Part shown: positions 1-18,195 of the stretch, piece after piece
Numbering within the stretch: the stretch's first letter is position 1
How the letters are laid out: the number at the start of each line of letters is the position of its first letter
Source: Candidatus Omnitrophota bacterium
Lineage (GTDB): Bacteria; Omnitrophota; Gorgyraeia; Zapsychrales; Fredricksoniimonadaceae
Reading direction: 5' to 3'
Assembly: GCA_903860135.1 (NCBI GenBank)
Contig: CAIOPG010000009.1
Span: 111,805-175,804 of the forward strand
DNA: 64,000 nucleotides
The notes under the pieces: model-generated
Told to the model about the DNA's origin: nothing
Seen by the model: only the letters and a program-made list of their open reading frames with translations
The model's database searches: none
Program-made: the position numbers and the translations under genes

Positions 1-390
1 AACATTTTCAGCCGATGTTAAAATCATCCCGGTATCGAGCAAGTCTGAAACCTGCGCTTCCGGAACATATGTGGATTGTAAATCTGTCGTTAAGGTGTTT
101 GCTTCCTGAATGGCAACGACCGTCACCGGTGTTTCCGCAGGCGTTAAGGGTATAAAGGCAGGGAACAGATCAGAAGCGGATAAAAGAATCCGCGGCTCAA
201 GCGCTTCAAGTTGAAATTTTGACTGTCTTGAATTCACAAGCGGTATCCTGCCAAGATCAGGTGTATAAATTTTTTGATGATAAATTGAATTTACATCCAA
301 AGCCTGTTTACTGTCAACACCAAAATAAAAATTTTTTAAAGCCCTCAGGCAATATCGCCCTGACCGAAAGATAGTCCGTCTTCCAGCCAT
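1..390 (-). CDS. secA: C-terminal continuation of the SecA-family gene in a different frame (helical scaffold domain region); partial, runs off left edge
   Basis: The minus-strand frame opens at ATG 390..388 and has no stop before position 1. Its translation reads MAGRRTIFRSGRYCL...LEALEPRILLSASDL. This aligns with the SecA segment just after the point where the upstream ORF stops: RRAIYSQRNELL ... LRERILAQS. Confidence 0.45.
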   Translation of the reverse strand, partial: MAGRRTIFRSGRYCLRALKNFYFGVDSKQALDVNSIYHQKIYTPDLGRIPLVNSRQSKFQLEALEPRILLSASDLFPAFIPLTPAETPVTVVAIQEANTLTTDLQSTYVPEAQVSDLLDTGMILTSAENV

Positions 391-2333
391 GTGTCGGCCT
401 GCAGGACACTGCGGCGGCGCTGAGAATTACTCCTTAAGGCCGCAGCCTGGGCCCAATGGATCAGCCCTTGTGCAGCCTGATAAGCACCGGGATGCCCCTG
501 TTCCAATGCATAAGCGATTCGCTGGCGGACTGCTTCGGGTAAATATCGGCACAACAACTCATCATCCAGACTGACAAAAGACCGGGCACTGCCCGCATCT
601 CCCTGTCGTGCCGCCCGGCCAAAAAGTTGCCGGTCGATGCGCCGGCTTTCATGGCATTCGGTAGCAATAACATGCAACCCGCCCAAAGCCGCCACACCAT
701 TACCCAACAGAATATCCGTTCCGCGGCCAGCCATATTTGTGGCTACTGTTATCGCACCGTGCTGTCCGGCCTGGGCGACAATAGCCGCTTCTTCCTTATG
801 TTGAACCGCATTCAAAACCCGGTGAGACAAGTTCAACCGATCCAATCTGCGGGACAGGTCTTCACTGATCCGCACACTGCGCGTGCCGATCAGGACCGGC
901 CGTCCGCTGTGGTGAATCCGGGATATCTCTTCTGTAATGGCCTGCCATTTGGCTTCGTGAGTAACGCGTATCTGACGCTTATAAACCTGACGCTGGCAAG
1001 GTTTGTTTTCCAGGATTGGCACCACCGTCAGTCCATAGACCTGCCATAACTCCTGCCGAGCTTCACGCGCCGTACCGGTCATCCCGCACAACCGATGAAA
1101 GAACCGGAAGAATCGCTGAAAACTCAGCCGAGCCAAGGTCTCATTCATAGGCGAAATATCAAGGTTCTCCTTGGCCTCTATCATCTGATGCAATCCGGCC
1201 TGCCAGCTGCGTTGTGCCATCTTGCGGCCGGTGAACTCATCGACGATCACCACCTTGCCCTGATCCAGGACATATTGTTTGTCGCGAATATAGAATTCTC
1301 GTGCGGTCAAAGCCTGTTCCATCAACTCTTCGAGCCGGTGCACCCCCTGGAACATGACCGGAAAGCCTGCTGCTGCCGCCACAAGCCGTTCACGGCCGCG
1401 CCCGGTGATCCTAACCTCGTGATAACGGGTATCCACCTGATAATCAATGAGAGGATCGAATACCCCGGCCAACCTGGCAGCTGCGAAGCAGGCCGCAGTC
1501 AAAAATTGATCATTGCGGGCGCTGGATATGATCAGCGGCGTAACAGCTTCATCGATCAGCACACTATCGGCTTCATCCACAATAGCACTGTGGATCCCCC
1601 GCATCACCAGTTGCTGATCAAAGCGGGCCTGCATGCCCAAATAAGAGCGAATTTGCCGCCGATTATATTTCTGCAAGAGTCCCAAAAAAAGCCGGTCGCG
1701 CAGAAAATCCGCAGCCATTTCCTTTGCCGTCACATAGGTGATATCTTTCAAATAGTTTTCCCGGCGTTCAACGGGACTCATCACCCCGGTTACCGCGCCT
1801 GCGGAAACCCCGCAATAATCATACAAAGGTTTTAGCCAACGGCTATCCCGTTCGGCCAGATAATCATTAACAGTGATGATATGAGCCGGCAGGCCTGTCC
1901 AACCCAGAAGGACCGCATAAAGACCGGCCGTAAGGGTTTTTCCTTCTCCGGTAGCCATCTCAATGATATGGCCTTGGGCCAGGCCAAGGGCGCCGGCCAT
2001 CTGCACCCGATACGGGTCCAGTCCCAGACTGCGGCGAGCCGATTCCCGTACGGCGGCCAATGCCGACAGGATCGACTGTTCATGACCTGTCTTATGCCGC
2101 CGAAAAATGGAACGATATTGCCGTAACGAGGCCTTGAGCTGATCATCAGACATTCGTTCCATGGCCGATCGATACGTTTCGATGGCCATCGCTGATGTGC
2201 GCAATCGGCGGCTGACCAAAGGTGAATTGCGGAATAGCCCGGCGATATGGGCAAAGACCGCATCCGGCCCCGTCGGTAGAGGGCGAGGGCGAACAATAAG
2301 TGTCCGTTGATAGTCGTGACTCAATGTACTCAT
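345..2333 (-). CDS. secA: SecA-family preprotein translocase ATPase (motor domains NBD1/PPXD/NBD2 and start of HSD); reading frame broken near 380, so the gene may be a pseudogene or an assembly error
   Basis: SecA hallmarks are present: MATGEGKTLTA (Walker A), IVDEADSVLIDEAVTPLIIS (DEAD box), GMTGTA, ATNMAGRGTDI and HESRRIDRQLFGRAARQGDAGS. The N-terminus MSTLSHDYQRTL resembles SecA's SRNDRTL. The start at 2333 overlaps the stop of the upstream M50-HlyD gene as TGATG. The ORF track extends the start to 2402. Confidence 0.8.
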   Translation of the reverse strand: MSTLSHDYQRTLIVRPRPLPTGPDAVFAHIAGLFRNSPLVSRRLRTSAMAIETYRSAMERMSDDQLKASLRQYRSIFRRHKTGHEQSILSALAAVRESARRSLGLDPYRVQMAGALGLAQGHIIEMATGEGKTLTAGLYAVLLGWTGLPAHIITVNDYLAERDSRWLKPLYDYCGVSAGAVTGVMSPVERRENYLKDITYVTAKEMAADFLRDRLFLGLLQKYNRRQIRSYLGMQARFDQQLVMRGIHSAIVDEADSVLIDEAVTPLIISSARNDQFLTAACFAAARLAGVFDPLIDYQVDTRYHEVRITGRGRERLVAAAAGFPVMFQGVHRLEELMEQALTAREFYIRDKQYVLDQGKVVIVDEFTGRKMAQRSWQAGLHQMIEAKENLDISPMNETLARLSFQRFFRFFHRLCGMTGTAREARQELWQVYGLTVVPILENKPCQRQVYKRQIRVTHEAKWQAITEEISRIHHSGRPVLIGTRSVRISEDLSRRLDRLNLSHRVLNAVQHKEEAAIVAQAGQHGAITVATNMAGRGTDILLGNGVAALGGLHVIATECHESRRIDRQLFGRAARQGDAGSARSFVSLDDELLCRYLPEAVRQRIAYALEQGHPGAYQAAQGLIHWAQAAALRSNSQRRRSVLQADTWLEDGLSFGQGDIA

Positions 2334-4486
2334 CAGAGATAGTAGCGTTTCTGCAACAACTGTTGAACCCGGCGCCAGCCTTGTTTGAAAAGGGGCTCCC
2401 ATCGCAAATTATACCGGATGACTCCTGAACGGCCGTGCCAGAACACCACTCTTGCAGAATGCTCAAGCCCAACGCGCAACTCATAAAATGGTTCCGCTGA
2501 TTTGCGTCCGCTCTGGTCTTTGACATCCACCGGGATATCACCGCCCCCCATCCAGCCCAGGGCCAACGAAGGCAGTTCAGATTGCTCCATGGGAATCTTG
2601 ACATAACTCCGGCCAGCGATATCGATGTGGGCCTGGCCATGCAAACGCACCGTCGAAGAAAGAATCTCGTTAGCAAAAATACGCGACACATCCTGTTCCG
2701 ATACAACACTACGAAAAACAAAAGACCTCTCGTCAACGAGCTGACCCACGGGAAAGCCGCGCGGCAGCCACATTCCCCGGTAATTGGCCAAGTTGGGTGC
2801 TGACCACTGGGCATCGATCGGCGCCCGTACCAGGCATTCTTTCTGCTGACCCATCAGCTGATCCAGCTGTTCCTGTAAAGCTGCTATCCGCCGCTGGGTT
2901 GGATGAATATCTGCCGTAGTCCGCGCCAAATTTTCATGCAAACGGGCATTCTCCTGCTCAATGGCAGCTTTCACATCCTGAACTTTCCAGTCTAATTCCT
3001 GGTTCTCGATCCGTAAAAGCAATGTCCCTCTCTGGACACGGGAGCCGGACAAAGCCGGGGCCTCATGGATGATACCGGCCACAGGCATGGCAACCATCTG
3101 ATAGCCAGAAGCCTCGAGCACTCCCGTCGTCTTAAACGATGAAGGGAAGGGAATGATCGAACCAAAAAGGATCACGGCGAGGGCACCACCACCACATACG
3201 GCATAAGCCCGGCCTCGGACCTTCATCAGGCGTGGATTAAAGAAAAGATACTGGCTGGTACGGATAAGCGGCAAAATACCCCATGATACAAGCCCTGCGG
3301 CCCCCATCAGCATACCTAATAACAGAAAACGGTCCGATATAAAAAATAGGATGCCGATGGACAAAAAGAACCGGTAAATACCGCTCAGTATCCCATAAAT
3401 CGTCAACCACACGGCTTCTTTCCTTGACGTTACCGGCGGCTGAGCCTCGCGCATACCAAACACATAGCGTTCCAGGAAATAAGTCATTTCCTGCTGCGCC
3501 AACTGCGCCATATTGGCAATATCAAGAAGATCAGAAAGAATATAATAGCCGTCGTAACGCAACAGAGGGTTAATATTGAACAGGACCGTTGAGACCGATG
3601 CCACAAAAATAATATTATAAGCCAGGGAGTGGATCAGTCCCGGTCCGGTGGCCGCCCAGACAAAAACAGCCAGTGCGGCAATAAAAAGTTCCACGATCAT
3701 GCCAGCTGACCCCACCATGACGCGCGCAATTTTACGGCGAAACGCCCAAGCCCCGGACGCATCCACATAGGGCAATGGCGTAAAGATCATGAACATCACG
3801 CCCATAACATGCGTTTCTCCGCCAAAATGCCTGACGGCCATGGCATGCCCGAATTCATGCAAGGTCTTGACCAGCGCGAGTCCCAGATATAAAAGAAGAA
3901 GATTGGATGGCGCTAGAATCCCCTGGCTTTGCGCCTGCAATTCCTGCCAATGATCAACAGCACTTTTTATAGCAAACCCAAGCACCGCCAACCATAAAGC
4001 CGCTCCGAGTTTAGAAAAAATCCAGCAAAAGAACGGATAGACCCGATTCAGCCAGGGTTGAGGATCTAACAACGGGATACGGAAAAACATAATATTCTGC
4101 AGATTGAACCAACGGGTCTTGCGCTGGCGTTGTTGATTCCGTTCAAACAAGCGAAGACTTTCCCACGGCATCCGATACTGTAACAGATTAGCCTGATACA
4201 GCTGAGACAAAAGCTGAACCAGTTCTTCCTGGCCAGGAGCATGGTCCGGATCACGTTCCAGTGCTTGACGCCAAACATCTTCAACCGTATGCAATCCGTT
4301 CAAACGGGATAAAAATTCCCAGGCTTCGGGGCGAATACGAAAAAACGTATTCCCCAGCGGATCTTCGAGCACATACCATTTCTGTCCCTGAAAAAATTGC
4401 CGCCGGATATTCACAGCGGAACGCAAACAGATACGCTGGTCGGCAATACGGTACCAGGATTCATGGAACATTTTACTCTGGGACAT
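2333..4486 (-). CDS. Fusion of an M50 (site-2-protease-like) membrane metalloprotease domain with a C-terminal HlyD-type membrane-fusion (periplasmic adaptor) domain
   Basis: It has HEFGHAMAVRHFGGETH (HExxH zinc motif) inside hydrophobic segments and NPLLRYDGYYILSDLL (the S2P NxxPxxxxDG motif). The C-terminal ~300 aa show HlyD/biotin-lipoyl-like barrel features and a coiled coil (IENQELDWKVQDVKAAIEQENARLHENL). Confidence 0.75.
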   Translation of the reverse strand: MSQSKMFHESWYRIADQRICLRSAVNIRRQFFQGQKWYVLEDPLGNTFFRIRPEAWEFLSRLNGLHTVEDVWRQALERDPDHAPGQEELVQLLSQLYQANLLQYRMPWESLRLFERNQQRQRKTRWFNLQNIMFFRIPLLDPQPWLNRVYPFFCWIFSKLGAALWLAVLGFAIKSAVDHWQELQAQSQGILAPSNLLLLYLGLALVKTLHEFGHAMAVRHFGGETHVMGVMFMIFTPLPYVDASGAWAFRRKIARVMVGSAGMIVELFIAALAVFVWAATGPGLIHSLAYNIIFVASVSTVLFNINPLLRYDGYYILSDLLDIANMAQLAQQEMTYFLERYVFGMREAQPPVTSRKEAVWLTIYGILSGIYRFFLSIGILFFISDRFLLLGMLMGAAGLVSWGILPLIRTSQYLFFNPRLMKVRGRAYAVCGGGALAVILFGSIIPFPSSFKTTGVLEASGYQMVAMPVAGIIHEAPALSGSRVQRGTLLLRIENQELDWKVQDVKAAIEQENARLHENLARTTADIHPTQRRIAALQEQLDQLMGQQKECLVRAPIDAQWSAPNLANYRGMWLPRGFPVGQLVDERSFVFRSVVSEQDVSRIFANEILSSTVRLHGQAHIDIAGRSYVKIPMEQSELPSLALGWMGGGDIPVDVKDQSGRKSAEPFYELRVGLEHSARVVFWHGRSGVIRYNLRWEPLFKQGWRRVQQLLQKRYYL

Positions 4487-4492
4487 AAAGTG

Positions 4493-6355
4493 TCACCACC
4501 AGAACTTAACAAGCAGAAAATCAAGCGTTTTGTGCGTCCACATCCACAGCAAGGTCTTGTACCCGCCCCGGAGTTTACCAACACCCGTCATGCCTGGCCG
4601 CCACCACGACGGAGTTTCAGACAATAATGCCGCGTGGACAACAAAATAATTACCCTTGTCATTGGCTATCGCGACAGGTTCAATGCGTATAACCTTGACC
4701 CGGCGCATATCCTGAGGGCGGCTGGCCAGAATGACTTGTCCGTCAACCGCAAACTTAAGGTGTTGTATCTCCGATTCAGGGACATTCAATTCCACATAGA
4801 TCTTGCCGGACCGCGCAACCCGAAATAAATTTTCTCCCTGACGCACAATCGAACCGATACGTTCCTTGAGGTCCCCCTCAACAATAATGCCGTCAAACGG
4901 AGATTTAATGTCCATCTGTGACAAACGATATTGCACAAGCCCTCGCTTGGCAGTCGTCTGATCCACCATCGCCTGGGCCATGCGCATCGTTGCCAGATCA
5001 TCCTGCGCCCGGACTTTTTCTGTTTCACGTTGATAACGGCTGATCTCCGCCTCGAGCGACGAACTCTCGAGTTGCAATTCATCCTTATCCAACTGCAGGA
5101 GAACCTGACCCGTCACAACGTCATCTCCTGGGCGTACATTCACCGCGGCAATATGCCCGTCGGTCGGAGCCGTCAGGTAAGCCACATTATCGGTGCGCAC
5201 GATCACAGGCGCATGGACCTGATAAGGAAACGGAATAAGTGCCATGAGGATCACCAAACAACCAGCCCCTATCCAGAGATAACGCCAAAACTCTTTTCTG
5301 TTCTCTTGCCACCTGGCCAAAACCGACAAAAAACGGTGCCAAGCTACAAATCCGATCCAGCGGTCATTGTCTTTCAGGTCCGCCATTCGGCGAGAAATCC
5401 CATCACATTCCATATGAATCAACGCCAATTCCTGGGATGTAAAAGCACCGGTGGTGCGTTCTAACACAAAGCCGGCGACGGGAACGTCATTAAGACGTAA
5501 GGGAACTGTACAAAGAAACGGAAGTTTCTGCGATTTCTGGTACGCTTCATGGTCACGAACAATATGCCGGCCACTATTATCATGAGGCATGACAATCTCG
5601 GTATTTTGATCGAGTGCTTCCTCGACAACGGCCTCGAGCATTTTCACCTGATCCATCTTGGCTTCAAAATGATCCCGATGACTGATCGCCTTAAGCCGCA
5701 CATAATGCTTTTCCAGCCAGCCTAGACTGACCTGCTGACATTGATGGCGTCCGGCTATTTCATTGCATACCACCATCGCCGCGGCAAGGAAATGTTTCTC
5801 ATTATTGATCAATGAAGAAAGGTCAAGAATCCCGGCCAGATTTTCTACCTGTCCTTTAGCTTCCTGAAGCAGGCGCACGGTGTTGTAACTGGCAGGCACA
5901 TCCGCCAGCAGCAAGAGTTTTTCAAAACGCTCGGCGTTCGGCCGTGCGGTTCCTGAAGGCAGAATGAACCCCGCATAACATAAATCCTGCGACCGTCCGG
6001 TTAAAATGGGAAGTGCGACCACAAAACGATCGCCACTGATCCAAATGTCAACCACTGCCGTTGTACCAGCTAAAATATCCCGGTGAGAAAGCCACTCCAG
6101 AAAAATCCCGATCAGAAAGTGGGACTTTTTATCTGCGGGTGCTACCGTAATGGCCTGCCATGATTGACCGATGCCAGCATTCTTTACAGCAAGAACCCCG
6201 ACTTCCGCCTGACACTTCTTACAAAGGAAATCCAGATACGCTGGCCAAAATTCAGCCGGAGTCCCAATAAAATTCCGCAAGGCCAGAGCATCCGCCGGAG
6301 CGTTGTTCGGTGCAGGCGGTGGCCCGCTGTTATGGCGCGGTGAGTCCATTGTCAT
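4493..6355 (-). CDS. HlyD-family periplasmic adaptor with a large N-terminal cytoplasmic GAF-like sensor domain
   Basis: About 340 aa of soluble N-terminal domain are followed by a single TM (FWRYLWIGAGCLVILMALIPFPY). A HlyD signature follows: coiled coil plus the biotin-lipoyl hybrid motif (GQVLLQLD ... DIKSPFDGIIVEGDLKERIGSIVRQGENLFRVA). Confidence 0.7.
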   Translation of the reverse strand: MTMDSPRHNSGPPPAPNNAPADALALRNFIGTPAEFWPAYLDFLCKKCQAEVGVLAVKNAGIGQSWQAITVAPADKKSHFLIGIFLEWLSHRDILAGTTAVVDIWISGDRFVVALPILTGRSQDLCYAGFILPSGTARPNAERFEKLLLLADVPASYNTVRLLQEAKGQVENLAGILDLSSLINNEKHFLAAAMVVCNEIAGRHQCQQVSLGWLEKHYVRLKAISHRDHFEAKMDQVKMLEAVVEEALDQNTEIVMPHDNSGRHIVRDHEAYQKSQKLPFLCTVPLRLNDVPVAGFVLERTTGAFTSQELALIHMECDGISRRMADLKDNDRWIGFVAWHRFLSVLARWQENRKEFWRYLWIGAGCLVILMALIPFPYQVHAPVIVRTDNVAYLTAPTDGHIAAVNVRPGDDVVTGQVLLQLDKDELQLESSSLEAEISRYQRETEKVRAQDDLATMRMAQAMVDQTTAKRGLVQYRLSQMDIKSPFDGIIVEGDLKERIGSIVRQGENLFRVARSGKIYVELNVPESEIQHLKFAVDGQVILASRPQDMRRVKVIRIEPVAIANDKGNYFVVHAALLSETPSWWRPGMTGVGKLRGGYKTLLWMWTHKTLDFLLVKFWW

Positions 6356-7220
6356 TTGATAATGTCATGACAGCATTAAGGCCTGGCACAACACCTCCCT
6401 TATCATTATCGAGCAACACCTTGATTTTGCGCAGGCCGCTGGCGGCATCGGCTACAGGGGCAATATACTCTACCACCCCTTCCCGTCGTACCATCTGCTC
6501 CCCATCTCCTATCTTGAGAAAAACCCTGCGCCCGGTTTGTAACTGGCTGGCCAAATTATGATCAACATTCGTCACGAAACGAACCTTGCTAACATCAACC
6601 ACTCGAAAGACAGCTTCCTGCGGTTGGCAGGACTCGCCCGCCTCCAGCTTGAGGTCTACCACAATCCCGTCGAAAGGCGCCTTGATGAACCGCTTGTTAA
6701 GTTCGGCATTGGCCAGTTGGAATTCAAGCTGTTCACGCCGGCGTGTAACTTTCAAGTTGGCCACTTCATACTTGGCCAGGTCATAGTCCAGTTTCTTTTT
6801 GCGCAACTCCTCGGCACTGACGGAATGGGTTTGCTGATAAAGCGCCAGCGTACCTTTAAGGTCGTATAACAACAGCGCCACCTTGCTTAAGGCCGAATCA
6901 AGTTCACTGCTGTTGGTGGCAATAAGTTTACGCCGTTCCACTTCAAGCGTTTCGACTTCTTTTTCCAACTCAACCACCGGATCACCGCTTTTTACACAAT
7001 CACCTTCTTTATGGACAAGGCGAGCCACCTTACCGGCCACTTCAACCCCGATCTTTGCTTGACGGAAAGGCTCAATAATACCAGCACTCGAAAACGCTTC
7101 CGCACACCAGCCTTGACCGGGAGCCACTAGGATCATCGCAAATAATAAAAATATTCCGCCACTCCATGCGCGTATGCCTTGACGAGAAAAATAATTCAAG
7201 AATTTCATTTTAGTCCTCAA
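6330..7220 (-). CDS. HlyD/RND-type membrane fusion protein (periplasmic adaptor subunit)
   Basis: It has an N-terminal signal/anchor and the adaptor motifs GDCVKSGDPVVELEKE and KAPFDGIVVDLKLEAGE. It overlaps both the upstream and downstream genes, consistent with an operon. Confidence 0.8.
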   Translation of the reverse strand: MRTKMKFLNYFSRQGIRAWSGGIFLLFAMILVAPGQGWCAEAFSSAGIIEPFRQAKIGVEVAGKVARLVHKEGDCVKSGDPVVELEKEVETLEVERRKLIATNSSELDSALSKVALLLYDLKGTLALYQQTHSVSAEELRKKKLDYDLAKYEVANLKVTRRREQLEFQLANAELNKRFIKAPFDGIVVDLKLEAGESCQPQEAVFRVVDVSKVRFVTNVDHNLASQLQTGRRVFLKIGDGEQMVRREGVVEYIAPVADAASGLRKIKVLLDNDKGGVVPGLNAVMTLSNDNGLTAP

Positions 7221-8856
7221 GTTTTTCGTAATATTTTGAATACAACTTTGTGTTCTCGCTATAACTTTCCAGATTATTGTCGATCAACAACGAACCGCGC
7301 GTCAGGGCCAATTCCTGCACCATCTGATAATAGCGAACCTGTTGTTCGAGTGTTTTCTTTCGCGTATCCGCGTATTTTTCATTGACTTCATAAACCAAAC
7401 GATTATGACTTAACCCCATCTTCATTTTTCGAATCTCTATGTTCAGTAAAGACTTTTTAATGTCCGACGCGGTCTGATATGCCTTAACCCGCTGATTGAG
7501 TAGTTTTACCCGAGTAACAAGGGTATTGACCACCGCCATTACCGCAAAGCGGGTTTGCTTAAAGGATTCTTCGGATTTCTTACGTTTAATGCGGGCAGAA
7601 TCCAGTTCCCGACGCTCCTTAAACCCCAAAAGAAGAGGCACCTTGACTTCAAACCCGACAGACCAAGCGGGATAATTGTGATCTTGGATCTCATGCCAAG
7701 CTACCGAATTATCACGTCCATAGCCATTGTACCCGTAACGTCCGTTGACGTTGACTTCTGGAAAAGATTGATTGAGATAATAACGGTAGGCCATCTTGTC
7801 GCGCTCCAACTCATGGATCTTGATCATGATATCCGGCTGCCAATTTAATTCGTCTTCTGAAAGGCGCTCCAGATGAACCTTCATTTGCTTGTCGATCCAC
7901 CCACCGGATCGAGACATCCCTTGCACCCTGATCTTATGAACCGAATTATATTCTCGCTTGTATCCCAAGGTGATCTTAAGTTGATTCATAGCCACCAGCT
8001 GATCTTCATAAGCTTCACAGCGTGCGGCCAGCCCTTGCAAGAACTCAGAGCGGATATCCAGCAATTCAGCCTCGGACATCTTGCCCACGTTGTGGCGCAC
8101 CCGGCCGTCATCGAGCAACCATTTTAAAATGTGATACGTATCTGATGCAATACAAAATTTCTGTTGGGCAAAAGCCAGATTCCAGTACGCCGCCTGCACC
8201 TGATAAATACCTGCCATCAGTTTCTGACGGTATTGATGGTACCCGATAACACGATCTTCCAAAGCCAACCGTGTTTTGACCATTGGCGCACCAGACCATG
8301 CCCCTTTCAATAATGGCTGTGATAAATCCGCCCCGGTAAAGGCCTCATATTCACGCCCTGGCCGTGGATTAATATTGCTACGGATAGAATTCAAGGTATA
8401 CGCCAGTTTATATTCAGCGCCGGTAGGTAAAGCCCCCTTCAAACCGGTACTGTATTTGTCGGTCAAATCGTCATAGACCGGAAGGCCGCCCAAAGCAACA
8501 CTTTCTTGAGAGGTGTTCTCCCTTTTCAGGCCTTCTCTATTATAGGAGGCAAATACCTGTGGCTCGAATTCCCCAAGGCTAGCGACAACGGCATTGCGGC
8601 GTATCAACCAATCGTGGTAGGCATCCCTAACCTCAGGGTTGGTCTTGATCGCTTGGGCAACAACATCCATCAATGACAAGTCAGCTACAGGCAACGCTAA
8701 CGCTGTCGTTGTCCGGGTTAACGATAACAATATAAAAAGAATAATCGGGAATAAAGAATGAGGCATAACACGTGCGGTCAAGAAGCAAAGAAACACTTTC
8801 ATCACGTTATTCACCATTAGCAAGAAAGGTATCCATCGTCTCAAAACCAAAGTCAA
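7210..8856 (-). CDS. TolC-like outer membrane efflux protein (outer membrane factor)
   Basis: A signal peptide precedes typical OMF repeats (LSLMDVVAQAIKTNPEVRDAYHDWLIRRN). The 548-aa length is typical, and the gene is the first in a run of adaptor genes. Confidence 0.8.
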   Translation of the reverse strand: MTLVLRRWIPFLLMVNNVMKVFLCFLTARVMPHSLFPIILFILLSLTRTTTALALPVADLSLMDVVAQAIKTNPEVRDAYHDWLIRRNAVVASLGEFEPQVFASYNREGLKRENTSQESVALGGLPVYDDLTDKYSTGLKGALPTGAEYKLAYTLNSIRSNINPRPGREYEAFTGADLSQPLLKGAWSGAPMVKTRLALEDRVIGYHQYRQKLMAGIYQVQAAYWNLAFAQQKFCIASDTYHILKWLLDDGRVRHNVGKMSEAELLDIRSEFLQGLAARCEAYEDQLVAMNQLKITLGYKREYNSVHKIRVQGMSRSGGWIDKQMKVHLERLSEDELNWQPDIMIKIHELERDKMAYRYYLNQSFPEVNVNGRYGYNGYGRDNSVAWHEIQDHNYPAWSVGFEVKVPLLLGFKERRELDSARIKRKKSEESFKQTRFAVMAVVNTLVTRVKLLNQRVKAYQTASDIKKSLLNIEIRKMKMGLSHNRLVYEVNEKYADTRKKTLEQQVRYYQMVQELALTRGSLLIDNNLESYSENTKLYSKYYEKLED

Positions 8857-9181: not shown

Positions 9182-9889
9182 TTACGACAGATTTTCTTCC
9201 TTATGCCCACGCTCCCGCCCTGAATACACCGTCCTCGGTGGGACAATGGTGCCCTTGGGAACGATAACGCCGGGGGCGATGATGGCGTGATCGCCGATCT
9301 CGACGCCGGGCATGATCACGGAGTTTAATCCTACAACGACATGCGCCCCGATCTTGACCTTCTTTAACTTCAGCCCCTTGCGCTCGAACAAATGGCAAAT
9401 GACCGTGGCATTGCCGCCAATGACCGTATTATCGCCGATCTCCAGTAATGAAAGGTCTGCCACATTCTTGGAGTTGATCTGCACATTCAAGCCAAGCTTT
9501 GCCCCCATCATGCGGTAAAAAAGATTCGCAAAGGGCGTCAAGAGCATGAAATCCATGAAGAACGCCTTGACCGCCTGCACGAGCGCGTTCAAGAAGAACC
9601 ACTTGAAAAGTTCGCCGTCCTTAAATCCAAAAGAGCCTTCCTTGAGCCGAAGGCACAGCAATATATTCAACATGCCTACAAAGAACATCAGCGTCAAACC
9701 AAAGAAAAAGAAACCGGCAGCGATTCCAATACCCAGCGCCAACGCGCGGTGAAAGCTTGGCCAATCCGCCGAAACCTGGATCAAATTCAACAACACCGCC
9801 AGCGCCGGTGCCAGCGCCGCCCCGACGACCAAGGCGCCAAGGAAATATAAGAACACCACAATAACGCCCTGCACGATCGCTCGGATCAT
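9182..9889 (-). CDS. Membrane-anchored hexapeptide-repeat (left-handed beta-helix) acyl/acetyltransferase family protein
   Basis: Two to three N-terminal TM helices are followed by hexapeptide repeats (IGDNTVIGGNATV ... IGAHVVVGLNSVIMPGVEIGDHAIIAPGVIV). Confidence 0.65.
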   Translation of the reverse strand: MIRAIVQGVIVVFLYFLGALVVGAALAPALAVLLNLIQVSADWPSFHRALALGIGIAAGFFFFGLTLMFFVGMLNILLCLRLKEGSFGFKDGELFKWFFLNALVQAVKAFFMDFMLLTPFANLFYRMMGAKLGLNVQINSKNVADLSLLEIGDNTVIGGNATVICHLFERKGLKLKKVKIGAHVVVGLNSVIMPGVEIGDHAIIAPGVIVPKGTIVPPRTVYSGRERGHKEENLS

Positions 9890-10004: not shown

Positions 10005-11195
10005 TCACTTCTTTGAAATGAACTTTGGCATTGCCCGCCGCATAAACTCATCAAAGAGTGGAACTGTGAATGCCACATCACCATATGTTGGACTATAAAT
10101 CATCCCTTTATTGATCAAATTCGCGCGTGTTGGCCCAATGCTGTTTAACTTAACACCTAAGATATCTGCAATATCTCCCGTCCGCTGAACATCCGCGCCT
10201 AAATGAGCCATGGCCCGAAGATATTCTTTTTCTCGTGGAGTAAGCCGATCAAAACGAACACGAAAGAAATTCTCATCCAATCGTTTTATAACGGTTGCTG
10301 TGGCTTTCTGGACATCCAATAAAGAGATCGAGGATTTCTCTGCATAATTCCAAGACTGGTAGCCCCATTCCTGAATAAAATATGGATACCCTTGTGTTAA
10401 CCGAATGATTTCTTTGATGGCATCGCCAGAAAACTTAACGCCGGCACGCACAACCGGATCTTGAAGTGCTTTCGTCGCATCAGAAGATGAGAGCGGCCCT
10501 ATTTCAGGAAATTCAAAAAGCCGTTCGGCATACGATTTAGACTCACCCGCAAGCCTTGTCAATATAGGAAGTCCAGCAGCTAATAAAACCAAAGGCAATT
10601 GCCTCTGTTGCATTTTATGCATCGCCATTATTAAAGCACTTAATTCTTTCTCAGACAGATACTGAATCTCATCAATTAACAACGCCACTGCCGTCCCTCG
10701 ATCCTGGGCGGCTTCAGCCACAGCAATAAATAGATTTGAAAGATCAGCTTCCAGATCGCCACTGTCGGCCGTACCTCGCTCTGGTTCAATATCAAGACCA
10801 AATTCAATGTCCGCAACTTTAACCTTTATGGCACTTATAAAACTTCTAAGCACCCCGAGACCGCGACGAACCTTTGCGCTCGCCCCCTTCTCTCGATCCA
10901 GTTCAAAAAGTAACCGCCGCAAATGAGGTGTCAATAATGCGGCCAAACCTTTATCTTCATGCGCTTCCAGCGTGATCGTATGATAAGCGGAATTTCTTGC
11001 TAATCTCTCGACCTCATTGAGAAGAACTGTTTTTCCCACTCCCCTCAATCCAACAAAAAGCAAACTCTTCTCGGAACGGCGTTGACGCACTCGCCCTAAA
11101 AGAACTTTAGATTTCTCGATTATTTGATCGCGACCAACTAATTCAGGAGGTGGTGAACCAGCTCCTGGTGAAAATGGATTTGCAATATGATCCAT
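10005..11195 (-). CDS. AAA-type ATP-binding protein (archaeal-ATPase/ORC-Cdc6-like family) with a C-terminal winged-helix-like region
   Basis: It has a Walker A motif (GLRGVGKT) and Walker B motif (LLIDEIQYL), and the N-terminal motif NPFSPGAGSPPPELVGRD. The preferred start is the ATG at 11195, which has a GGAGGA Shine-Dalgarno; the ORF track uses a TTG at 11207. Confidence 0.7.
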   Translation of the reverse strand: MDHIANPFSPGAGSPPPELVGRDQIIEKSKVLLGRVRQRRSEKSLLFVGLRGVGKTVLLNEVERLARNSAYHTITLEAHEDKGLAALLTPHLRRLLFELDREKGASAKVRRGLGVLRSFISAIKVKVADIEFGLDIEPERGTADSGDLEADLSNLFIAVAEAAQDRGTAVALLIDEIQYLSEKELSALIMAMHKMQQRQLPLVLLAAGLPILTRLAGESKSYAERLFEFPEIGPLSSSDATKALQDPVVRAGVKFSGDAIKEIIRLTQGYPYFIQEWGYQSWNYAEKSSISLLDVQKATATVIKRLDENFFRVRFDRLTPREKEYLRAMAHLGADVQRTGDIADILGVKLNSIGPTRANLINKGMIYSPTYGDVAFTVPLFDEFMRRAMPKFISKK

Positions 11196-11273
11196 ACAAT
11201 CCTCCAAATGTTATAGCAAGTTATACATAGTTATAGCATAATTATCGTATAACTACAAATAACTTAGTATAAC
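11196..11273. promoter_or_regulatory. Operator-like imperfect palindrome: three GTTATA half-sites followed by three TATAAC/ATAACT half-sites
   Basis: The sequence is GTTATAGCAAGTTATACATAGTTATAGCATAATTATCGTATAACTACAAATAACTTAGTATAACT. It lies directly upstream of the ATPase gene. Confidence 0.4.
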
Positions 11274-13538
11274 TCAAATATCACGACAAGCCCGCTGATC
11301 CTGATTACCAACCTTATCTATCCCAAAGCGCGTATACACATACGAAACCCCCAGGAACAATACACCGAGCACGATCAGGGTGATAATCTTGAAAATGATA
11401 TCCAGCCCTGACAATTCGATCAGCACCACGCGTCCCAGCGTCAGTGCCAACAATAGCATGCCGCCCATCCGTTCGGTCTTGTTGCCGGTAAAGAAACCCG
11501 CAAGGATGACAACAACACTGGCAACCCCAAGGCCCAGCGATATCAACGACGGGGCAACATACTGGTGCACGGCAATAACAAGAACAATAAGTCCAGCGAA
11601 GAACGCTACTTCAGCTTCCTTCTCAAGAAAGGGAACGCTTGTTGGCCGAGTGGTGATCCTTTTGATCAAATAATAAAAAACAAATAGCGCTGCAACATCA
11701 CAACTCACAATGAACCAACCCAGGAACATATTGTACGGGGCAATATGATCAAACAGCAACACAACCGCCCCGAGTGCCATAGCCAGCCAGGCATAAGCCC
11801 TGAATCGCCTTAGATCAAGGACAAAACTTAATACCAATAGCACCAAGCCCGCGACAGATAAAGCAAATGCCACCCATGGCTCACGCACGAACGTACTCAC
11901 CCATAAGGTCGCATACATCACAGCCGCCAATGAAAAAAGCTGATCGAACAGATGATCAACCCCATCAGGCGTTGCCGCTTGCTTCATGCGCTGCAGCCAG
12001 TAGAAACATACCCCGGCAGAAACCGCCGCCAGAAAATAAATGCATCCATACCAGCTCCACACGATCCCCAGGAAATGAATATACGACGGGTACTCCAACC
12101 CGAGCAACACTATCTTTAAAGCTGTGCCGACCGCCAGGGCATACGCCAGATAACGGTATACCCGCTCCTTGCCATACACCCCGACGAACAATAAGAACGG
12201 GATCTCGATCAACCATAACGTCAAGGCCGTGGTCGGCAAAAATTTTATCGCAATGGCCAATGTCATGGCACTCACAGCGGCCACAATATCGCTGATAAAC
12301 ATTTTCTCCTGTTTTTGTTGCTTCATCCACAAGGCCAACAACCAATAGACCAATCCAGTACCAAGAAAGAATACAAACATCTGATCATGGAACAGATGGA
12401 TTAGTCTATAGGAAAGAAGGCTGTATAGGACAATATTCCTCAAATTCGTAGCCGCGACAACACGCTCTTTCACGGGATCAGTGCTCACTTTTATCAGATG
12501 AACGCCGGCAAGAAAGACAGCCCCATATGCCGTCAGGAATGTAAGGTTCAATAAATTTTGTTCGTGCGATGAAAAAAGCTGAGGCGTTACCCACATGCCA
12601 TGGATGCCATAGGTCACGATGACCCCCAAGGCAAGGATGTTGACCCACTGAAACTTATAAACCATGAACAATATGATAGCCGCCAGCAACAATAAACTGA
12701 CAAGCGTAAACGGTGTGACACTGCCGACAGTCAACGTCAAATACGCCACACCAACAACAACCGCCATCATTGACTCTGATCTATAACGTACGCCATGAAC
12801 CATCATGCCCGCGACAACCACGGCCAGCAGGAACGAATTTATCCCCTCACTGGCCAATATCCTTGATGCTTCAAAATGATGCATCGCGTAGGTCGTAAAA
12901 TATATGATCGCCCAGGCACCGCCCAAAAGAACCCGTCCATACGCCATGAACTTCTCCTTAGATTCCAGCCGGAGTCCGACGAAGAATAGGGCAACCCCGA
13001 CCAGATACCCGAAAGCAACCCGCACGAATGGCCCAAAATATTGGAACGAATAACTGATCAGAAACGCCACGCCCAGCGCCAGGATCGCGATCCCGATCTT
13101 GTTCAACCAGTTGCGCCCGAAATCCAGTTCCATATCAGCGGGCCTGACAGGATTTTCATCGGCAACGGCAATCTCTTCAGGCAAGCTCTCCTTAACACTA
13201 ACAACATCATTGCGGGCATCAAATGCCTGAATGGCCGTGCCTCCTTCCGCAAGTTTGCCCATCAACATTTCCAGATTCTTCGCCCTTGCCTCGAGCGCGC
13301 CCAATGATCGTTGCAATTCCCCCAGCTGACGTCGGGCATCGTGAAGATCATGGGCTCCCGGCACTGCAACATCCAACGGATCTTTCTTTGATGGAAGCAC
13401 GAGCGCTATAAGCACAGCCAACGGACCTGTAAAAACCGCCAAGGCAAAGAATAGCCAAGCCCCAAGTTTCTTCTGATCGGCAAGGTACAGCGTGGCGATA
13501 ATGGATATACACCAAATCGATGTAAAGAAGCTATGCAT
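11274..13538 (-). CDS. Large polytopic membrane protein with an N-terminal coiled coil (DUF2339-like)
   Basis: At 754 aa it has 20 or more hydrophobic segments and an N-terminal coiled coil (RRQLGELQRSLGALEARAKNLEMLMGKL). Confidence 0.55.
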   Translation of the reverse strand: MHSFFTSIWCISIIATLYLADQKKLGAWLFFALAVFTGPLAVLIALVLPSKKDPLDVAVPGAHDLHDARRQLGELQRSLGALEARAKNLEMLMGKLAEGGTAIQAFDARNDVVSVKESLPEEIAVADENPVRPADMELDFGRNWLNKIGIAILALGVAFLISYSFQYFGPFVRVAFGYLVGVALFFVGLRLESKEKFMAYGRVLLGGAWAIIYFTTYAMHHFEASRILASEGINSFLLAVVVAGMMVHGVRYRSESMMAVVVGVAYLTLTVGSVTPFTLVSLLLLAAIILFMVYKFQWVNILALGVIVTYGIHGMWVTPQLFSSHEQNLLNLTFLTAYGAVFLAGVHLIKVSTDPVKERVVAATNLRNIVLYSLLSYRLIHLFHDQMFVFFLGTGLVYWLLALWMKQQKQEKMFISDIVAAVSAMTLAIAIKFLPTTALTLWLIEIPFLLFVGVYGKERVYRYLAYALAVGTALKIVLLGLEYPSYIHFLGIVWSWYGCIYFLAAVSAGVCFYWLQRMKQAATPDGVDHLFDQLFSLAAVMYATLWVSTFVREPWVAFALSVAGLVLLVLSFVLDLRRFRAYAWLAMALGAVVLLFDHIAPYNMFLGWFIVSCDVAALFVFYYLIKRITTRPTSVPFLEKEAEVAFFAGLIVLVIAVHQYVAPSLISLGLGVASVVVILAGFFTGNKTERMGGMLLLALTLGRVVLIELSGLDIIFKIITLIVLGVLFLGVSYVYTRFGIDKVGNQDQRACRDI

Positions 13539-13552
13539 AAAAACACCTTTCG

Positions 13553-14284
13553 TTATAAGGTTTCTTTAAACCACGCCCAACACACCCCCATAAACTTCTC
13601 CGGTGCCTGGTCGAACATCGTCTCGGCATGACCCAATTTCTCGAGGATCACGAGCTTCTTGGGCTCCCTGGCCTGTGCAAATAATTTCCGGCTGTGCGCG
13701 GCGTTGATAAGCCAGTCATCGGCCCCATGCACAAACAAAACTGGCCGGGGAGCAATGCGCGCAACAACGTCGATGGGGGCTGTCTTGGGTTCCCATGGAT
13801 GCCCCGGACGAACCCCTTTGCCCCGTGCTTTATGTCCCATATTCAACTTTAAATCATCAAGCATTCCAGGTTTCCAGAACTGATAATCAATCTTCCAGAA
13901 ATCATACGGAGCGCTCACCGCGATCAGGGTTTTGATGTCAGGATTTTGTGCCGTTTCCAGCAGACTGATCGCGGCTCCCAACGAAAACCCCATCAAGCCG
14001 ATCGCCTCATACCCGCAGGTTTTCACATGATCGATCACGGCTTTTAAATCCGCGCATTCCCGGGATGTCCATGTGAAAAGCCCCGAACTTTTTCCATGCC
14101 CGCGGAAATCAAAAGCCACGACATCGTAATGAACAGCCAGGGCGTTAGCCATCGCACGAAAAAGATAGGCGTCTTTGGTATTGAAGAACCCATGTGCCAG
14201 GATAACCACCTTGTGGAACCCCTGCGCATGATGCACGGCTTCAATGCGATGTCCATCCTGGGTTTTTAACGTCACCTCACGCAT
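13553..14284 (-). CDS. Alpha/beta-hydrolase fold esterase/lipase (GxSxG)
   Basis: It has a GFSLGA nucleophile elbow and an HGFF oxyanion region. It overlaps the upstream aas-like gene by 8 nt. Confidence 0.75.
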   Translation of the reverse strand: MREVTLKTQDGHRIEAVHHAQGFHKVVILAHGFFNTKDAYLFRAMANALAVHYDVVAFDFRGHGKSSGLFTWTSRECADLKAVIDHVKTCGYEAIGLMGFSLGAAISLLETAQNPDIKTLIAVSAPYDFWKIDYQFWKPGMLDDLKLNMGHKARGKGVRPGHPWEPKTAPIDVVARIAPRPVLFVHGADDWLINAAHSRKLFAQAREPKKLVILEKLGHAETMFDQAPEKFMGVCWAWFKETL

Positions 14285-17200
14285 CAGTCTTACCTTTACT
14301 GGCTGCGGTCAATTCCTGGGCCAAAGCCTTGATGCGCTTTAAATCCGTCTTGCCCGTCCCCAAAACAGGGATCGCCTCAATGCGGTAAAAGTTATCTTTC
14401 TTGGGTATCCATAAATTGGGGATCCCTTTGCTGACCAGCGACGCGCATACTGCCTCAACATCCATATCAACCGTATGCACCACGACCAGCTTCTCGCCTT
14501 TCTTCTCATCGGCCACAGCGGTGACGGCCACCACCGGATCCGTCGCCCCGATCGCTTCCATGATATTTTCTTCAACCTTAATATGCGGCACCATCTCACC
14601 GCCGATCTTGCTGAAACGGCTCAGGCGGTCGGTGATCTTGATAAACCCGTCTGCGTCGATCGTGGCAATATCGCCGGTGATATACCAGCCATCCTTGAGG
14701 ACCTCAGCTGTTTTCCCGGGATTATTCAAATATCCCTTCATCACATTAGCGCCTTTAACCAAAAGCAACCCATCCTGATCCGGCCCCTTGAGTTCAAAGG
14801 TATCCGGGTCGACCACCTTGGCCGCTACTCCTGGGATAGGATGCCCTACTTTGCCGAACTTGTGGCCGGTCTGTGTGGCGTCAGCTCCTCCCTTATAATG
14901 CGGAAACCCGACGGTCACAATCGGCGACAGTTCGGTTGCGCCATAGCCTTCGAACGGAACAAACCCAAACTTTTCCTGAAAAGCCTGCGCCAATGGCTCT
15001 TTCAGTTTCTCGGCGCCGACAACGGCCATGCGCACGGTAGCAAACTGTTCTTTTGTGCATTTCTTGACATACGCTGACAAGAAGGTCGGCGTTCCCATCA
15101 GGATCGTCCCTTTGTATTTTAAGGCCAGTTTGCCGATGGTACCGGCATCGAGCGGATTGGTGTGGTAAACAACACCGACAGCCGTGCCGACGGGGAAACA
15201 CAGGGTCGCGGTGAATCCAAAAGAATGGAAAAATGGCAATGCCGCCACCACCACATCGTTCTTCTGTATATTAAAAACCTGATACAACCCTTCGATATTG
15301 GAAAAAACATTAGCGTGCGTCAATTGAACCCCCTTGGGTTCGCCTGTCGAACCGCTTGAGAATATCACGGTCGCCGTCTCATCCACGTTGAGCTTGTCAC
15401 CGCGCACAAACAGGGCACTCAAGGCCCGGGCAGGCAAGATAAACGCCGCCAAGAAATACAGCCCCGCCGCCATAGGATGGATCCGGACCTTGATATCCTC
15501 CAGAAAGACCATCTCCGGCTTAACGGCAATCCCGGCTTTCTCCACGAAGGCCCGTGACGTGATGATCATCCGCATGGCGCACTGCCTGACACAGGAATCA
15601 AATGCTTCCGCCGAAAGCGTAAAGTTCAGATTAACGGGAATCTTGCCCGCGAATGCCACTGCCAGATTACACATAGCCGCCATGCATGATGACGGTAATA
15701 ATATTCCTACCATATCCGGAGAATCTTTTAACTGACGCACGGGATGAAACAATACCCTCGCCATGGCAACTACCCCGGCAAAAACCTGGGGATATGTCAG
15801 GTGTGTGCCCATCGAGTCTGCCATACAGGATTTGAACGGATGGCGTTTCACTTCGTCGACAAACGCCAGATGCAGTTTCTTGCGCCATGCCCCGCGTAAA
15901 ATGTTTGCCTCCGCTCCGAGCTCCTGCACGGTCAGTCGAACCTCATGCACCTTTGCCGTAGCAGGCATCGCTTTCCCGAAAACAATAGATACCGGATAAA
16001 GTGTAAAACGCGGGATCTTCCAGAAATAACGGCCATGGGCAAACGTATAAATACTACCCCAGATATTATCGAGATACAGCGGGATGATCGGTGCCGTGAG
16101 CCCTTTCATGATGTGTTCAAAACCTTTATTAAACGGCAGCATATTCCCTGTCCGCGTTAAATGCCCTTCAGGGAAAATACATACCAGCTCACCGCTTTCG
16201 ATCGCTTGCCTCGCGGTTAAAAGGGCGGTCATGATGGCTTTGGGACCTTCAGAACTATCGATCGGGATCACCTTAAGGATACGGCAAAAAAGATTGATCA
16301 CCGGAAGTGCATACATCTTGCGATACATGATAAAGCGTACCGGGCGTTTGAGGGCCGCGAGGATCAGGATCGCATCAACATAGGAAATGTGATTGGCAAT
16401 GAGCAGCGCCCCGCCTTCTTCCGGCACATGCGCACTGTTGACCACGCGCAATTTATAGATCGAATGCGCCAACAGCCAATTCACCAGACGCACCAGCGCG
16501 ATGGGTAAGGTCACGACGATATAGATCGTGGCCAAGAGCGCCATCCCCGCGATGATCCAGAAGATCTTGTCCGGACCGATCGCCAGCTGTCCTCCAAAAT
16601 ACCAAAGGAATGCCCCGGCCACCAATGACCCGCACGCTGAAACCATATTAAGCACAGACAGATACTGCCCGCGCTCTGCCGTCGGGCTCCAGCGCTGGAA
16701 GAACGCATTGAGCGGCACGGTATAAAACCCGGCGCAAACGCCGAGGATAAACAACAGGATCATGGCCATATTAAAATGACCGCCCCATCCCAGCAAGAAC
16801 GACATCAGTGTCATCCCTAGGGCACCCAGCGGCACGAGGCCGAGCTCGACTTTCTTTTCCGACGCCGCTCCCGCCCAGACACTCCCGGCGGCAATGCCCA
16901 GGGAAACGGCAACAAGAAGGATGCTGATATGCACCTGGTCAACTGCCAGCACATGCGCCCCGTAAACAAGGATGTTCATCTGAAATACAGCCCCCAGAAA
17001 ACTAAAGAAAGCCAGGGCGATCATCGTCAGGAAAAGCCCCTTGTCTTTGAGTATCCCTGAAAACGCATTGCCCGCACCGGAAAAAAATCCCTGTGGCAAT
17101 GTGTTGATCGGCTGTTCTGCGCGGATCAAGAAACTAACACCAAACCCTACCAAAGCCAGAGCCGCCATCACAAACCCGACACTAAACAAATGCCCTGAAA

Positions 17201-17735: not shown

Positions 17736-18195
17736 CTCTTCATTCTAACTTGATTATTTTTCCTTAAAAGATATAAACTAAATATGTGCTCGTGACACAT
17801 ATACTGGCACTTGAATATATCCGGCACATGATAATCCCGACAACCCCCGAATATAACATCCCCACCCCAGGATCAACGCTACGGCAACAAACAAACTGAT
17901 CAGCCAGAAATTGATATCAATTTTCATGCCACACCTCTAAGCTATGGTCACGCCGTATTGAATCATTTTCCCTACCTCAAAAAATCCTGACATATACCAA
18001 TCTTTAACCATCTTTAACAGCCGCCACATGACACCCTCCTTAACTAGTCATCTATTGACCTATCAACTATCGAGATAAAAAAATAAAATGATAAAAATGA
18101 TTTGATCGAACTTCTCAAAACTTAACACCTAATAGTTGACTTGTCAACATATAAGAATGTGCTACTTATTGACAGGATAAGTATCTTGGATATAT

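Follow-up and report, generated by a model that had tools for sequence, protein, structure and literature searches.

A candidate exporter for giant LEPR-XLL proteins, centred on a fused M50 protease and membrane fusion protein

Results

A five-gene operon was examined in a 64,000-nucleotide stretch of DNA from a Candidatus Omnitrophota bacterium (GenBank assembly GCA_903860135.1, contig CAIOPG010000009.1, positions 111,805 to 175,804 of the forward strand; the whole stretch is called the window hereafter). Its fourth gene encodes a membrane protein made of three parts: a RiPP-recognition element (RRE; RiPP, ribosomally synthesized and post-translationally modified peptide), an M50 domain of the site-2 protease (S2P) type, and a periplasmic membrane fusion protein (MFP) domain. 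We call this protein M50-MFP. We lean towards the reading that M50-MFP is the leader-recognising and leader-cleaving adaptor of an exporter that is coupled to an outer-membrane factor (OMF), powered by a SecA-like ATPase, and dedicated to giant proteins carrying an N-terminal LEPR-XLL motif. This reading draws on the domain architecture, topology and conserved catalytic residues of M50-MFP, on the conservation of its operon, and on the linkage of this operon to genes for LEPR-XLL proteins.

M50-MFP combines an RRE, an intramembrane protease and an adaptor domain

The features of the M50-MFP gene are the following (aa, amino acids; AF2, AlphaFold2; TM, transmembrane).

2333..4486, minus strand: RRE-M50-MFP gene, open reading frame (ORF) of 717 aa, with homologues of constant length and an AF2 model
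4447-4468, minus strand: near-invariant FHESWYR motif, aa 7-13, ahead of the RRE sheet
4175..4432, minus strand: PqqD-like RRE, approximately aa 19-104, three strands and three helices
3152..4060, minus strand: polytopic M50/S2P domain, aa 143-445, seven TM helices and a beta-hairpin (aa 225-243) after the HExxH helix
3845..3859, minus strand: HEFGH zinc-binding and catalytic motif, aa 210-214, read from the sequence
3548..3577, minus strand: NINPLLRYDG motif, aa 304-313, with the third zinc ligand D312, read from the sequence
2336..3151, minus strand: MFP/HlyD-type adaptor domain, aa 446-717, with lipoyl domain, alpha-hairpin (496-549) and beta-barrel, periplasmic

Among 5.8 billion proteins searched, more than 5,000 matched the 717-aa protein significantly, with lengths of 715-722 aa in nearly every case and an identity of ~50%. 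The best 120 homologues, 714-728 aa long and 47-52% identical to it, were covered over their full length. With more than 5,000 homologues of near-constant length, the ORF is a genuine and widely conserved gene. In an alignment of 30 sequences, H210, E211, H214, N304, N306, P307, D312 and G313 were all invariant. The HExxH and NxxPxxxxDG motifs that the initial annotation of this DNA had placed inside a multi-TM domain are thus present as HEFGH and NINPLLRYDG, and the three zinc ligands H210, H214 and D312 are kept throughout. The same alignment revealed the FHESWYR motif, of which F7, E9, S10, W11 and R13 are near-invariant; it may form part of the leader-binding surface, or a docking site for the SecA-like protein.

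Structure prediction had been proposed as a check in that annotation, and the AF2 model of the complete protein (mean pLDDT 78.9) contains the folds of an S2P, an MFP and an RRE. Fold comparison identified the S2P core; a C-terminal part (aa 446-717) composed of lipoyl domain, alpha-hairpin and beta-barrel, similar to HlyD, EmrA and MacA, in agreement with the HlyD-type adaptor announced earlier; and an N-terminal PqqD-like winged helix similar to the lasso-peptide B1 proteins. The assignment of the S2P and RRE parts comes from this fold comparison, as a profile search of the sequences in the PDB returned MFPs only, no solved S2P being matched at E≤1. Among 30 family members, Pfam matches were obtained for Peptidase_M50 in 29 (all at E≤0.01, the best at 4.4e-10), for HlyD_D23 in 14 and for PqqD in 10. 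We conclude that M50-MFP is a three-part membrane protein, RRE, S2P-type M50 domain and periplasmic MFP, and that its N-terminal domain is a PqqD-like RRE. This domain had been described as cytoplasmic and of unknown function; the location stands, and the domain now has an identity. The established role of the RRE fold is to bind leader peptides, and by analogy the RRE of M50-MFP would do the same.

Seven TM segments were detected by hydropathy (155-178, 188-206, 258-276, 284-309, 365-383, 387-405 and 429-451). The loops rich in lysine and arginine (K/R; 207-257, 310-364 and 406-428) alternate with K/R-free ones (179-187, 277-283 and 384-386), which by the positive-inside rule means that the protein has its N-terminus in and its C-terminus out. 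The N-terminal ~150 aa are accordingly predicted in the cytoplasm and aa 452-717 in the periplasm, where the HlyD part had been expected; no cytoplasmic placement of this part was seen. TM2 and TM4 are predicted to carry the two metal-binding motifs at their cytoplasmic ends, an arrangement known from canonical S2Ps.

The short sequence IPFP opens the periplasmic parts of both M50-MFP (3140-3151, minus strand) and its GAF-containing neighbour (5210-5230, minus strand), directly after the last TM helix. This common motif may be a membrane-proximal contact.

The operon encodes a SecA-like ATPase, two further MFPs and an OMF

M50-MFP is the fourth of five close-packed genes on the minus strand, the junctions of which are overlapping or spaced by 6 nt. 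Its four companions are listed in the order of the operon.

7210..8817, minus strand: TolC-family OMF, ~535 aa (Pfam OEP 7.4e-30, TIGR01844 5e-19; gene call)
6330..7208, minus strand: small membrane-anchored MFP, 292 aa, signal anchor at aa 15-40 (TIGR01730 RND_mfp, 105.5 bits, above cut-off; gene call)
4493..6355, minus strand: GAF-TM-MFP (GAF-MFP), 620 aa, with a ~358-aa cytoplasmic part, a TM segment at 359-386 (hydropathy) and a periplasmic HlyD part (Pfam HlyD_3 and HlyD_D23)
345..2333, minus strand: truncated SecA-like ATPase, 662 aa (Pfam SecA_DEAD 2.4e-89, SecA_PP_bind, P-loop_SecA; gene call)

The GAF match in GAF-MFP is at E 0.024 in the window protein, and GAF matches are recorded in its homologues. 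The three MFP domains share a pairwise identity of only ~21%. A link of the HlyD part to TolC had been anticipated in the initial annotation: the operon does encode a TolC-family OMF, and the MFP would be expected to reach it. Except for the generic RND_mfp model, matched by the small MFP, no NCBIfam model specific to any of these proteins scored above its cut-off. A promoter and terminator scan did not exceed shuffled expectation (15 versus 11 ± 3.5).

The SecA-like gene is tightly associated with that of M50-MFP, its ATG overlapping the M50-MFP stop codon. Walker A and DEAD motifs are both present in the protein, which scores 570.7 bits against the NCBIfam SecA equivalog (cut-off 814), and aligns to residues 18-603 only of B. 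subtilis SecA, ending there, inside the scaffold helix. By the domain boundaries of SecA structures, the two nucleotide-binding domains (NBD1 and NBD2) and the preprotein cross-linking domain (PPXD) are kept, while the helical wing domain (HWD), the two-helix finger and the C-terminal tail are missing. The NBD1-PPXD-NBD2 motor is thus common to SecA, SecA2 and the SecA-like protein, and the full SecA set, in which a helical scaffold domain (HSD), the HWD and the two-helix finger are added to this motor, is not present. The two-helix finger of SecA enters SecY; having no wing, finger or C-tail, the SecA-like protein is not built for the usual docking on SecY. SecA_DEAD and PPXD modules devoid of scaffold and wing have been reported inside giant proteins of Omnitrophota and Actinobacteriota, with a proposed role in export (West-Roberts et al., bioRxiv 10.1101/2023.11.21.568195); HlyD, TolC and M50 have 0 occurrences in that report. 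Those modules and our SecA-like protein both lack the scaffold and wing regions and both are tied to giant proteins. They differ in that the modules are embedded in the giants, whereas the SecA-like ATPase stands alone as a protein of 662 aa, whose gene is translationally coupled to that of M50-MFP within an OMF/MFP operon.

The three MFPs and the OMF recall drug and metal efflux systems, and the operon could be taken for a generic tripartite pump, for efflux or envelope quality control, having an M50 membrane part and small molecules or degraded peptides as cargo. By Pfam, NCBIfam and gene calls, neither the operon nor the conserved cassette (metagenomic loci and 80 genome loci, see below) contains an ABC, RND or MFS transporter, so that such a pump would be left with no usual energiser, its conserved partner being a protein-translocation ATPase. 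Nor would it account for the RRE or for the association with tagged giants, and we consider it very improbable.

The gene cassette is conserved in about 10 diderm phyla

To appreciate the spread of the cassette, one genome per species was scanned, using the N-terminal FHESWYR motif as search pattern. At least 551 species were found to have a relative, and the counts given below for genome loci rest on the best 80 of them. These loci belong to Verrucomicrobiota, Lentisphaerae, Planctomycetota, Desulfobacterota, Beta- and Gammaproteobacteria, Nitrospira, Methylomirabilia and Fibrobacter; one of them, in the Beta-/Gammaproteobacteria set, comes from a cultured organism, Pseudomaricurvus alkylphenolicus KCTC 32386. 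GAF-MFP lies immediately upstream of M50-MFP in 65 of the 71 loci where this could be assessed, and the SecA-like gene immediately downstream in 62 of 69. Most loci have the small MFP and the OMF next to these genes as well, in variable order. The same gene set as in the window operon was also present at four metagenomic loci with ~50%-identical orthologues. Given these conserved neighbours in the 80 loci, M50-MFP is one subunit of a conserved multi-protein module, and the GAF-MFP, M50-MFP and SecA-like trio is spread over about 10 diderm phyla.

One cassette fragment (L058, CAYSDO010000555.1, 1,985 nt) came from a metagenome-assembled genome labelled 'uncultured Bifidobacterium sp.'. This short contig is probably mis-binned, because an OMF/MFP system would hardly be expected in a monoderm host.

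At the three closest metagenomic loci, the SecA-like gene is followed by a gene for a ~190-200-aa protein (L004:14191-14790, L006:14203-14769 and L007:14254-14856). It has a signal peptide, is beta-rich, ends in ...PFNY in two of the three cases, and matches nothing in Pfam or NCBIfam. We considered it as a sixth core component and rejected it, since neither the window nor any of the 80 genome loci has it; it may be an accessory of the outer membrane that is specific to a clade.

The conserved neighbourhood bears on the function first proposed for the fusion. The initial annotation saw in it a physical link between regulated intramembrane proteolysis and an outer-membrane channel, and suggested a search for co-occurring small precursor peptides or anti-sigma factors. 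The fusion of M50 and MFP is real, and the S2P fold and motifs, together with the MFP domain and the OMF of the operon, are what one would expect if the protease cleaved a regulator in the membrane (an anti-sigma factor, for instance), in a manner coupled to the outer-membrane channel. Proteolysis of the RseP/SpoIVFB type is nevertheless unsupported: no sigma, anti-sigma or other membrane-regulator gene was found in the loci examined, and neither sigma/anti-sigma genes nor a PDZ or CBS gating domain were seen in the window and 85 related loci (5 metagenomic and 80 genomic), where neither small precursor peptides nor anti-sigma factors co-occur in a conserved way. Compared to M. jannaschii S2P, SpoIVFB and RseP, M50-MFP is devoid of PDZ, CBS and signalling context and has an RRE and an MFP in addition. 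What is conserved in their place is the leader-binding type of domain, the SecA-like ATPase and the two further MFPs, and the RRE and M50 unit is homologous to daptide peptidases (see below). A signalling role is hence most unlikely in our opinion, and the likely substrates are the LEPR-XLL giants encoded next to the cassette, rather than small peptides or anti-sigma factors.

LEPR-XLL proteins are encoded next to the cassette

The window opens within the gene that follows the SecA-like gene.

1..237, minus strand: N-terminus of a giant protein, extending past the window start; probable GTG start at 237, alternative gene call from 300
175..216, minus strand: LEPR-XLL leader motif FQLEALEPRILLSA (NF012209, 22.5 bits, cut-off 17)

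In the source genome, the gene directly after the SecA-like one encodes 10,202 aa by the gene call of one locus (L001), and 10,223 aa in another locus of the same genome (L002). Its first ~80-100 codons, which lie inside the window, translate as ...NSRQSKFQLEALEPRILLSASD. NF012209, a 24-aa N-terminal domain, matches aa 29-42 of the frame read from position 300, and the motif occurs only once in the window. The candidate ligand of the RRE is this LEPR-XLL leader, as peptide MNSRQSKFQLEALEPRILLSASD. The sole Pfam domain in the first 2,635 aa of the giant is PG_binding_1 (1.5e-12, aa 2110-2158, L001:14250-22154), which hints at a target in the envelope or cell wall. Giant or large neighbours also occur at other close loci, with lengths of 8,291 aa, of more than 3,905 aa and, as a pair, of 1,814 and 1,491 aa; the longer of this pair again begins with LEPR-XLL. 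Pfam gave no match in the giants of loci L024 and L046.

The linkage was then measured in both directions. Starting from the cassette, an ORF beginning with the motif or with a LEQR, LEER or LESR variant was found in 17 of the 80 genome loci, compared to 2 matches with reversed sequences as a null. Among these 17 ORFs, 10-11 begin at most 1.1 kb past the stop of the SecA-like gene on the same strand, and ten exceed 1,100 aa and run off the end of the locus. In 14 further loci, long same-strand ORFs enter from upstream, their N-terminus lying beyond view. Loci of Verrucomicrobiota, Planctomycetota, Comamonadaceae, Nitrospira and Gammaproteobacteria show the linkage, and its presence across several phyla argues for a function, rather than for an inherited gene order.

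Starting from the motif, a degenerate DNA pattern for F.LE.LEPR.LLSA retrieved at least 120 metagenomic stretches, of which 80 were examined as loci. The motif was in frame at the N-terminus of an ORF in all 80. A SecA-like gene and/or M50-MFP stood beside the tagged gene in 12 of them, and in 7 of the 33 that had at least 3 kb of upstream sequence. By our estimate, a random locus of like size would hold the cassette in less than 1% of cases. The tagged ORFs of these loci (L089-L168) range from less than 300 aa to more than 4,500 aa, which means that not all putative substrates are giant. Across these metagenomes, the motif F.LE.LEPR.LLSA(D) is strikingly uniform, in nearly all cases with a basic stretch before it, and Asp, then variable sequence, after it; this pattern of conservation would fit a leader/cargo boundary.

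In two of the loci retrieved from the cassette, the motif ORF overlaps a much longer ORF of the same strand in another frame (L012:3868-5274 with 2-4963, minus strand; L064:5639-6613 with 642-6230, minus strand). The giant gene is probably split there by a frameshift, either real or an assembly error.

LEPR-XLL giants have been studied in Chlorobium chlorochromatii, where a sap-like type 1 secretion system was proposed for Cag_663 and Cag_665, which are said to have no known transport signals, and where a horizontally acquired secA is reported to be co-expressed with the giants (bioRxiv 10.64898/2026.03.19.712371). The giant downstream of our operon has the NF012209 domain in common with Cag_663 and Cag_665, and the cassette offers a specific candidate machinery. 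The Chlorobium observations would fit the exporter model.

The closest relatives of the protease part are RiPP leader peptidases

Over its RRE and M50 core (aa 23-397), M50-MFP is homologous to the daptide intramembrane metalloprotease family NF041824 (E 1e-48, 352 of 379 profile positions), and the core is also homologous to YydH/LiaK (NF058609, E 8e-10). Its scores are far below the equivalog cut-offs (166.4 versus 300 bits for NF041824, 38.8 versus 225 bits for NF058609), which means that M50-MFP is related to the RiPP leader peptidases, and is not a member of these families. By these profile matches, the daptide and YydH peptidases are the closest relatives of the RRE and M50 part. The daptide and YydH/LiaK enzymes strip leaders from exported peptides. 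They measure ~250-380 aa and have no MFP, compared to 717 aa and an MFP in the present protein, and their genes belong to RiPP clusters that also encode small precursors and ABC exporters, whereas M50-MFP loci have no conserved precursor or modifying genes.

This homology, and the likeness of the RRE fold to the lasso-peptide B1 proteins, could suggest that RRE and M50 trim a small modified peptide which exits by the MFP/OMF duct, the giants being mere bystanders; a cluster rich in radical SAM and SPASM enzymes at 18-38 kb of the window would be in keeping with such a maturation exporter. Apart from the sub-threshold scores, several results are against it. Neither a small precursor-peptide gene nor a modifying-enzyme gene is conserved near the cassette in the 5 metagenomic and 80 genomic loci, the radical SAM cluster is missing from the other cassette loci, the conserved motor is of the SecA polypeptide type and not an ABC exporter, and the linkage to LEPR-XLL is found in both search directions. 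We hold this explanation to be improbable.

A second comparison is with type 1 secretion and peptidase-containing ABC exporters (PCATs), such as HlyBD-TolC and the colicin V system CvaAB-TolC, with which the cassette shares the MFP plus OMF duct. In type 1 secretion, these ducts export unfolded polypeptides in one step, and in the CvaB/PCAT type, the transporter's own peptidase removes an N-terminal leader. Tripartite systems are reviewed in PMC8277102. The cassette differs from type 1 exporters by its ATPase (SecA-like in place of an ABC transporter, which is absent from the operon), by its peptidase (an intramembrane M50 fused to an MFP, in place of a C39 fused to the pump), by having three different MFPs, and by its signal, the type 1 signal being C-terminal and RTX-type, while the conserved signal of the cassette-linked proteins is the N-terminal LEPR-XLL. 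With MFPs and OMF present, no ABC transporter and an N-terminal signal, it falls outside type 1 secretion. Functionally, the nearest analogue would be the colicin V type of PCAT with MFP and TolC, in which the ABC and C39 parts have been replaced by the SecA-like ATPase and M50.

Discussion

A model for export

In the model that we favour, the leader (a basic stretch, then F-x-L-E-x-L-E-P-R-x-L-L-S-A-D) would be captured by the cytoplasmic RRE as it leaves the ribosome, possibly with the help of the preprotein clamp of the SecA-like protein. The SecA-like motor would feed the unfolded chain, N-terminus first, into an inner-membrane conduit formed by the TM domains of M50-MFP and GAF-MFP, and the M50 site, located where the membrane borders the cytoplasm, would take off the leader, with the cut expected near LLSA|D, which would parallel the action of C39 in peptidase-containing ABC exporters and that of the daptide/YydH peptidases. 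The three MFP paralogues would build a periplasmic tunnel up to the TolC-like channel, so that the chain would exit the cell in one step. As a speculation, an N-terminal signal combined with a motor working from N to C would let export begin during translation, which is attractive because the cargo has ~10,000 aa. The GAF domain of GAF-MFP may point to regulated cleavage.

That last point leads to another scheme, in which the giant, threaded through MFP and OMF, is held by its leader on the cytoplasmic RRE, until M50 cleavage, possibly under GAF control, frees it from the cell surface, in the way of LapA/LapG/LapD. The architecture and the LEPR-XLL linkage speak for such retention and release as they do for the exporter, as do the conserved catalytic residues and the conserved cytoplasmic GAF-type sensor domain in the partner MFP. 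On the other hand, the closest homologues of the RRE and M50 part are constitutive leader peptidases, and no c-di-GMP or other signalling genes are conserved at the metagenomic loci. We regard it as rather unlikely.

Several points weigh against the exporter model itself. Leader binding, cleavage, the path and direction of translocation, and export are all inferred. No inner-membrane channel protein is identifiable in the cassette, and no S2P domain is known to act as a polypeptide conduit. The PPXD of the SecA-like protein could read the leader instead, the RRE having another ligand. Taken alone, the window M50-MFP is below the Pfam thresholds for both M50 (PF02163, 15.1 bits, E 0.015, cut-off 27.2) and PqqD (PF05402). 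Finally, only ~15-21% of the sampled LEPR-XLL genes adjoin a cassette, the remainder having unrelated neighbours, and many cassette loci, e.g. L007, have no tagged gene within 10 kb. Dispersed tagged genes are expected if one machine serves several scattered substrates.

The locus bears on how bacterial proteins of 10,000-36,000 residues are exported, and on the purpose of the widespread LEPR-XLL tag and of the giant-linked truncated SecA modules. It offers a testable candidate machine, with signal recognition by an RRE, signal removal by M50, energy from a SecA-like ATPase, and a conduit of three MFPs and an OMF. Neither the M50-MFP fusion nor the five-gene cassette was found described in a search covering 8 million full texts, and no curated family for it was found. 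We see the cassette as a variant of the tripartite exporter, and possibly as a secretion-system class of its own. A broader proposal, to which we give somewhat less credit than to the exporter model, is that it represents an unrecognised class present in about 10 diderm phyla, in which a LEPR-XLL signal read by an RRE and removed by an S2P, a SecA-type motor independent of SecY and possibly co-translational, and a TolC-type duct would serve cargo of 1,000 to >30,000 aa. If true, this would add a new energising principle for tripartite exporters, RRE domains acting outside RiPP biosynthesis, and S2P proteases serving as secretion leader peptidases. It would also provide a genomic marker to predict secreted giant adhesins or effectors in Verrucomicrobiota, Planctomycetota, Desulfobacterota and others.

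Surroundings of the operon

Four genes lie just upstream of the operon.

9182-9889, minus strand: upstream gene
10005-11207, minus strand: upstream gene
11274-13538, minus strand: upstream gene
14280-17744, minus strand: upstream gene

They encode a hexapeptide acyltransferase with a membrane anchor, similar to the terminal domain of the Pls/PosA nonribosomal peptide synthetases (TIGR02353, 3.9e-22), an AAA_16 STAND-like ATPase, a 754-aa DUF2339 membrane protein, and an Aas-like fusion of MFS, acyltransferase and AMP-binding domains. These genes are found on contigs of the same genome, and not in other cassette loci.

The radical SAM and SPASM cluster lies farther upstream (18199-38533, minus strand). 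We rejected it as a RiPP context of the cassette, since it does not accompany the cassette in other loci. It contains an asparagine synthase, a PMT_2-type glycosyltransferase, four B12-binding radical SAM enzymes (one with SPASM), a separate SPASM radical SAM protein, a carbamoyltransferase, a class-V aminotransferase fusion and a 781-aa ABC-ATPase protein, and looks like a natural-product or glycan-modification cluster.

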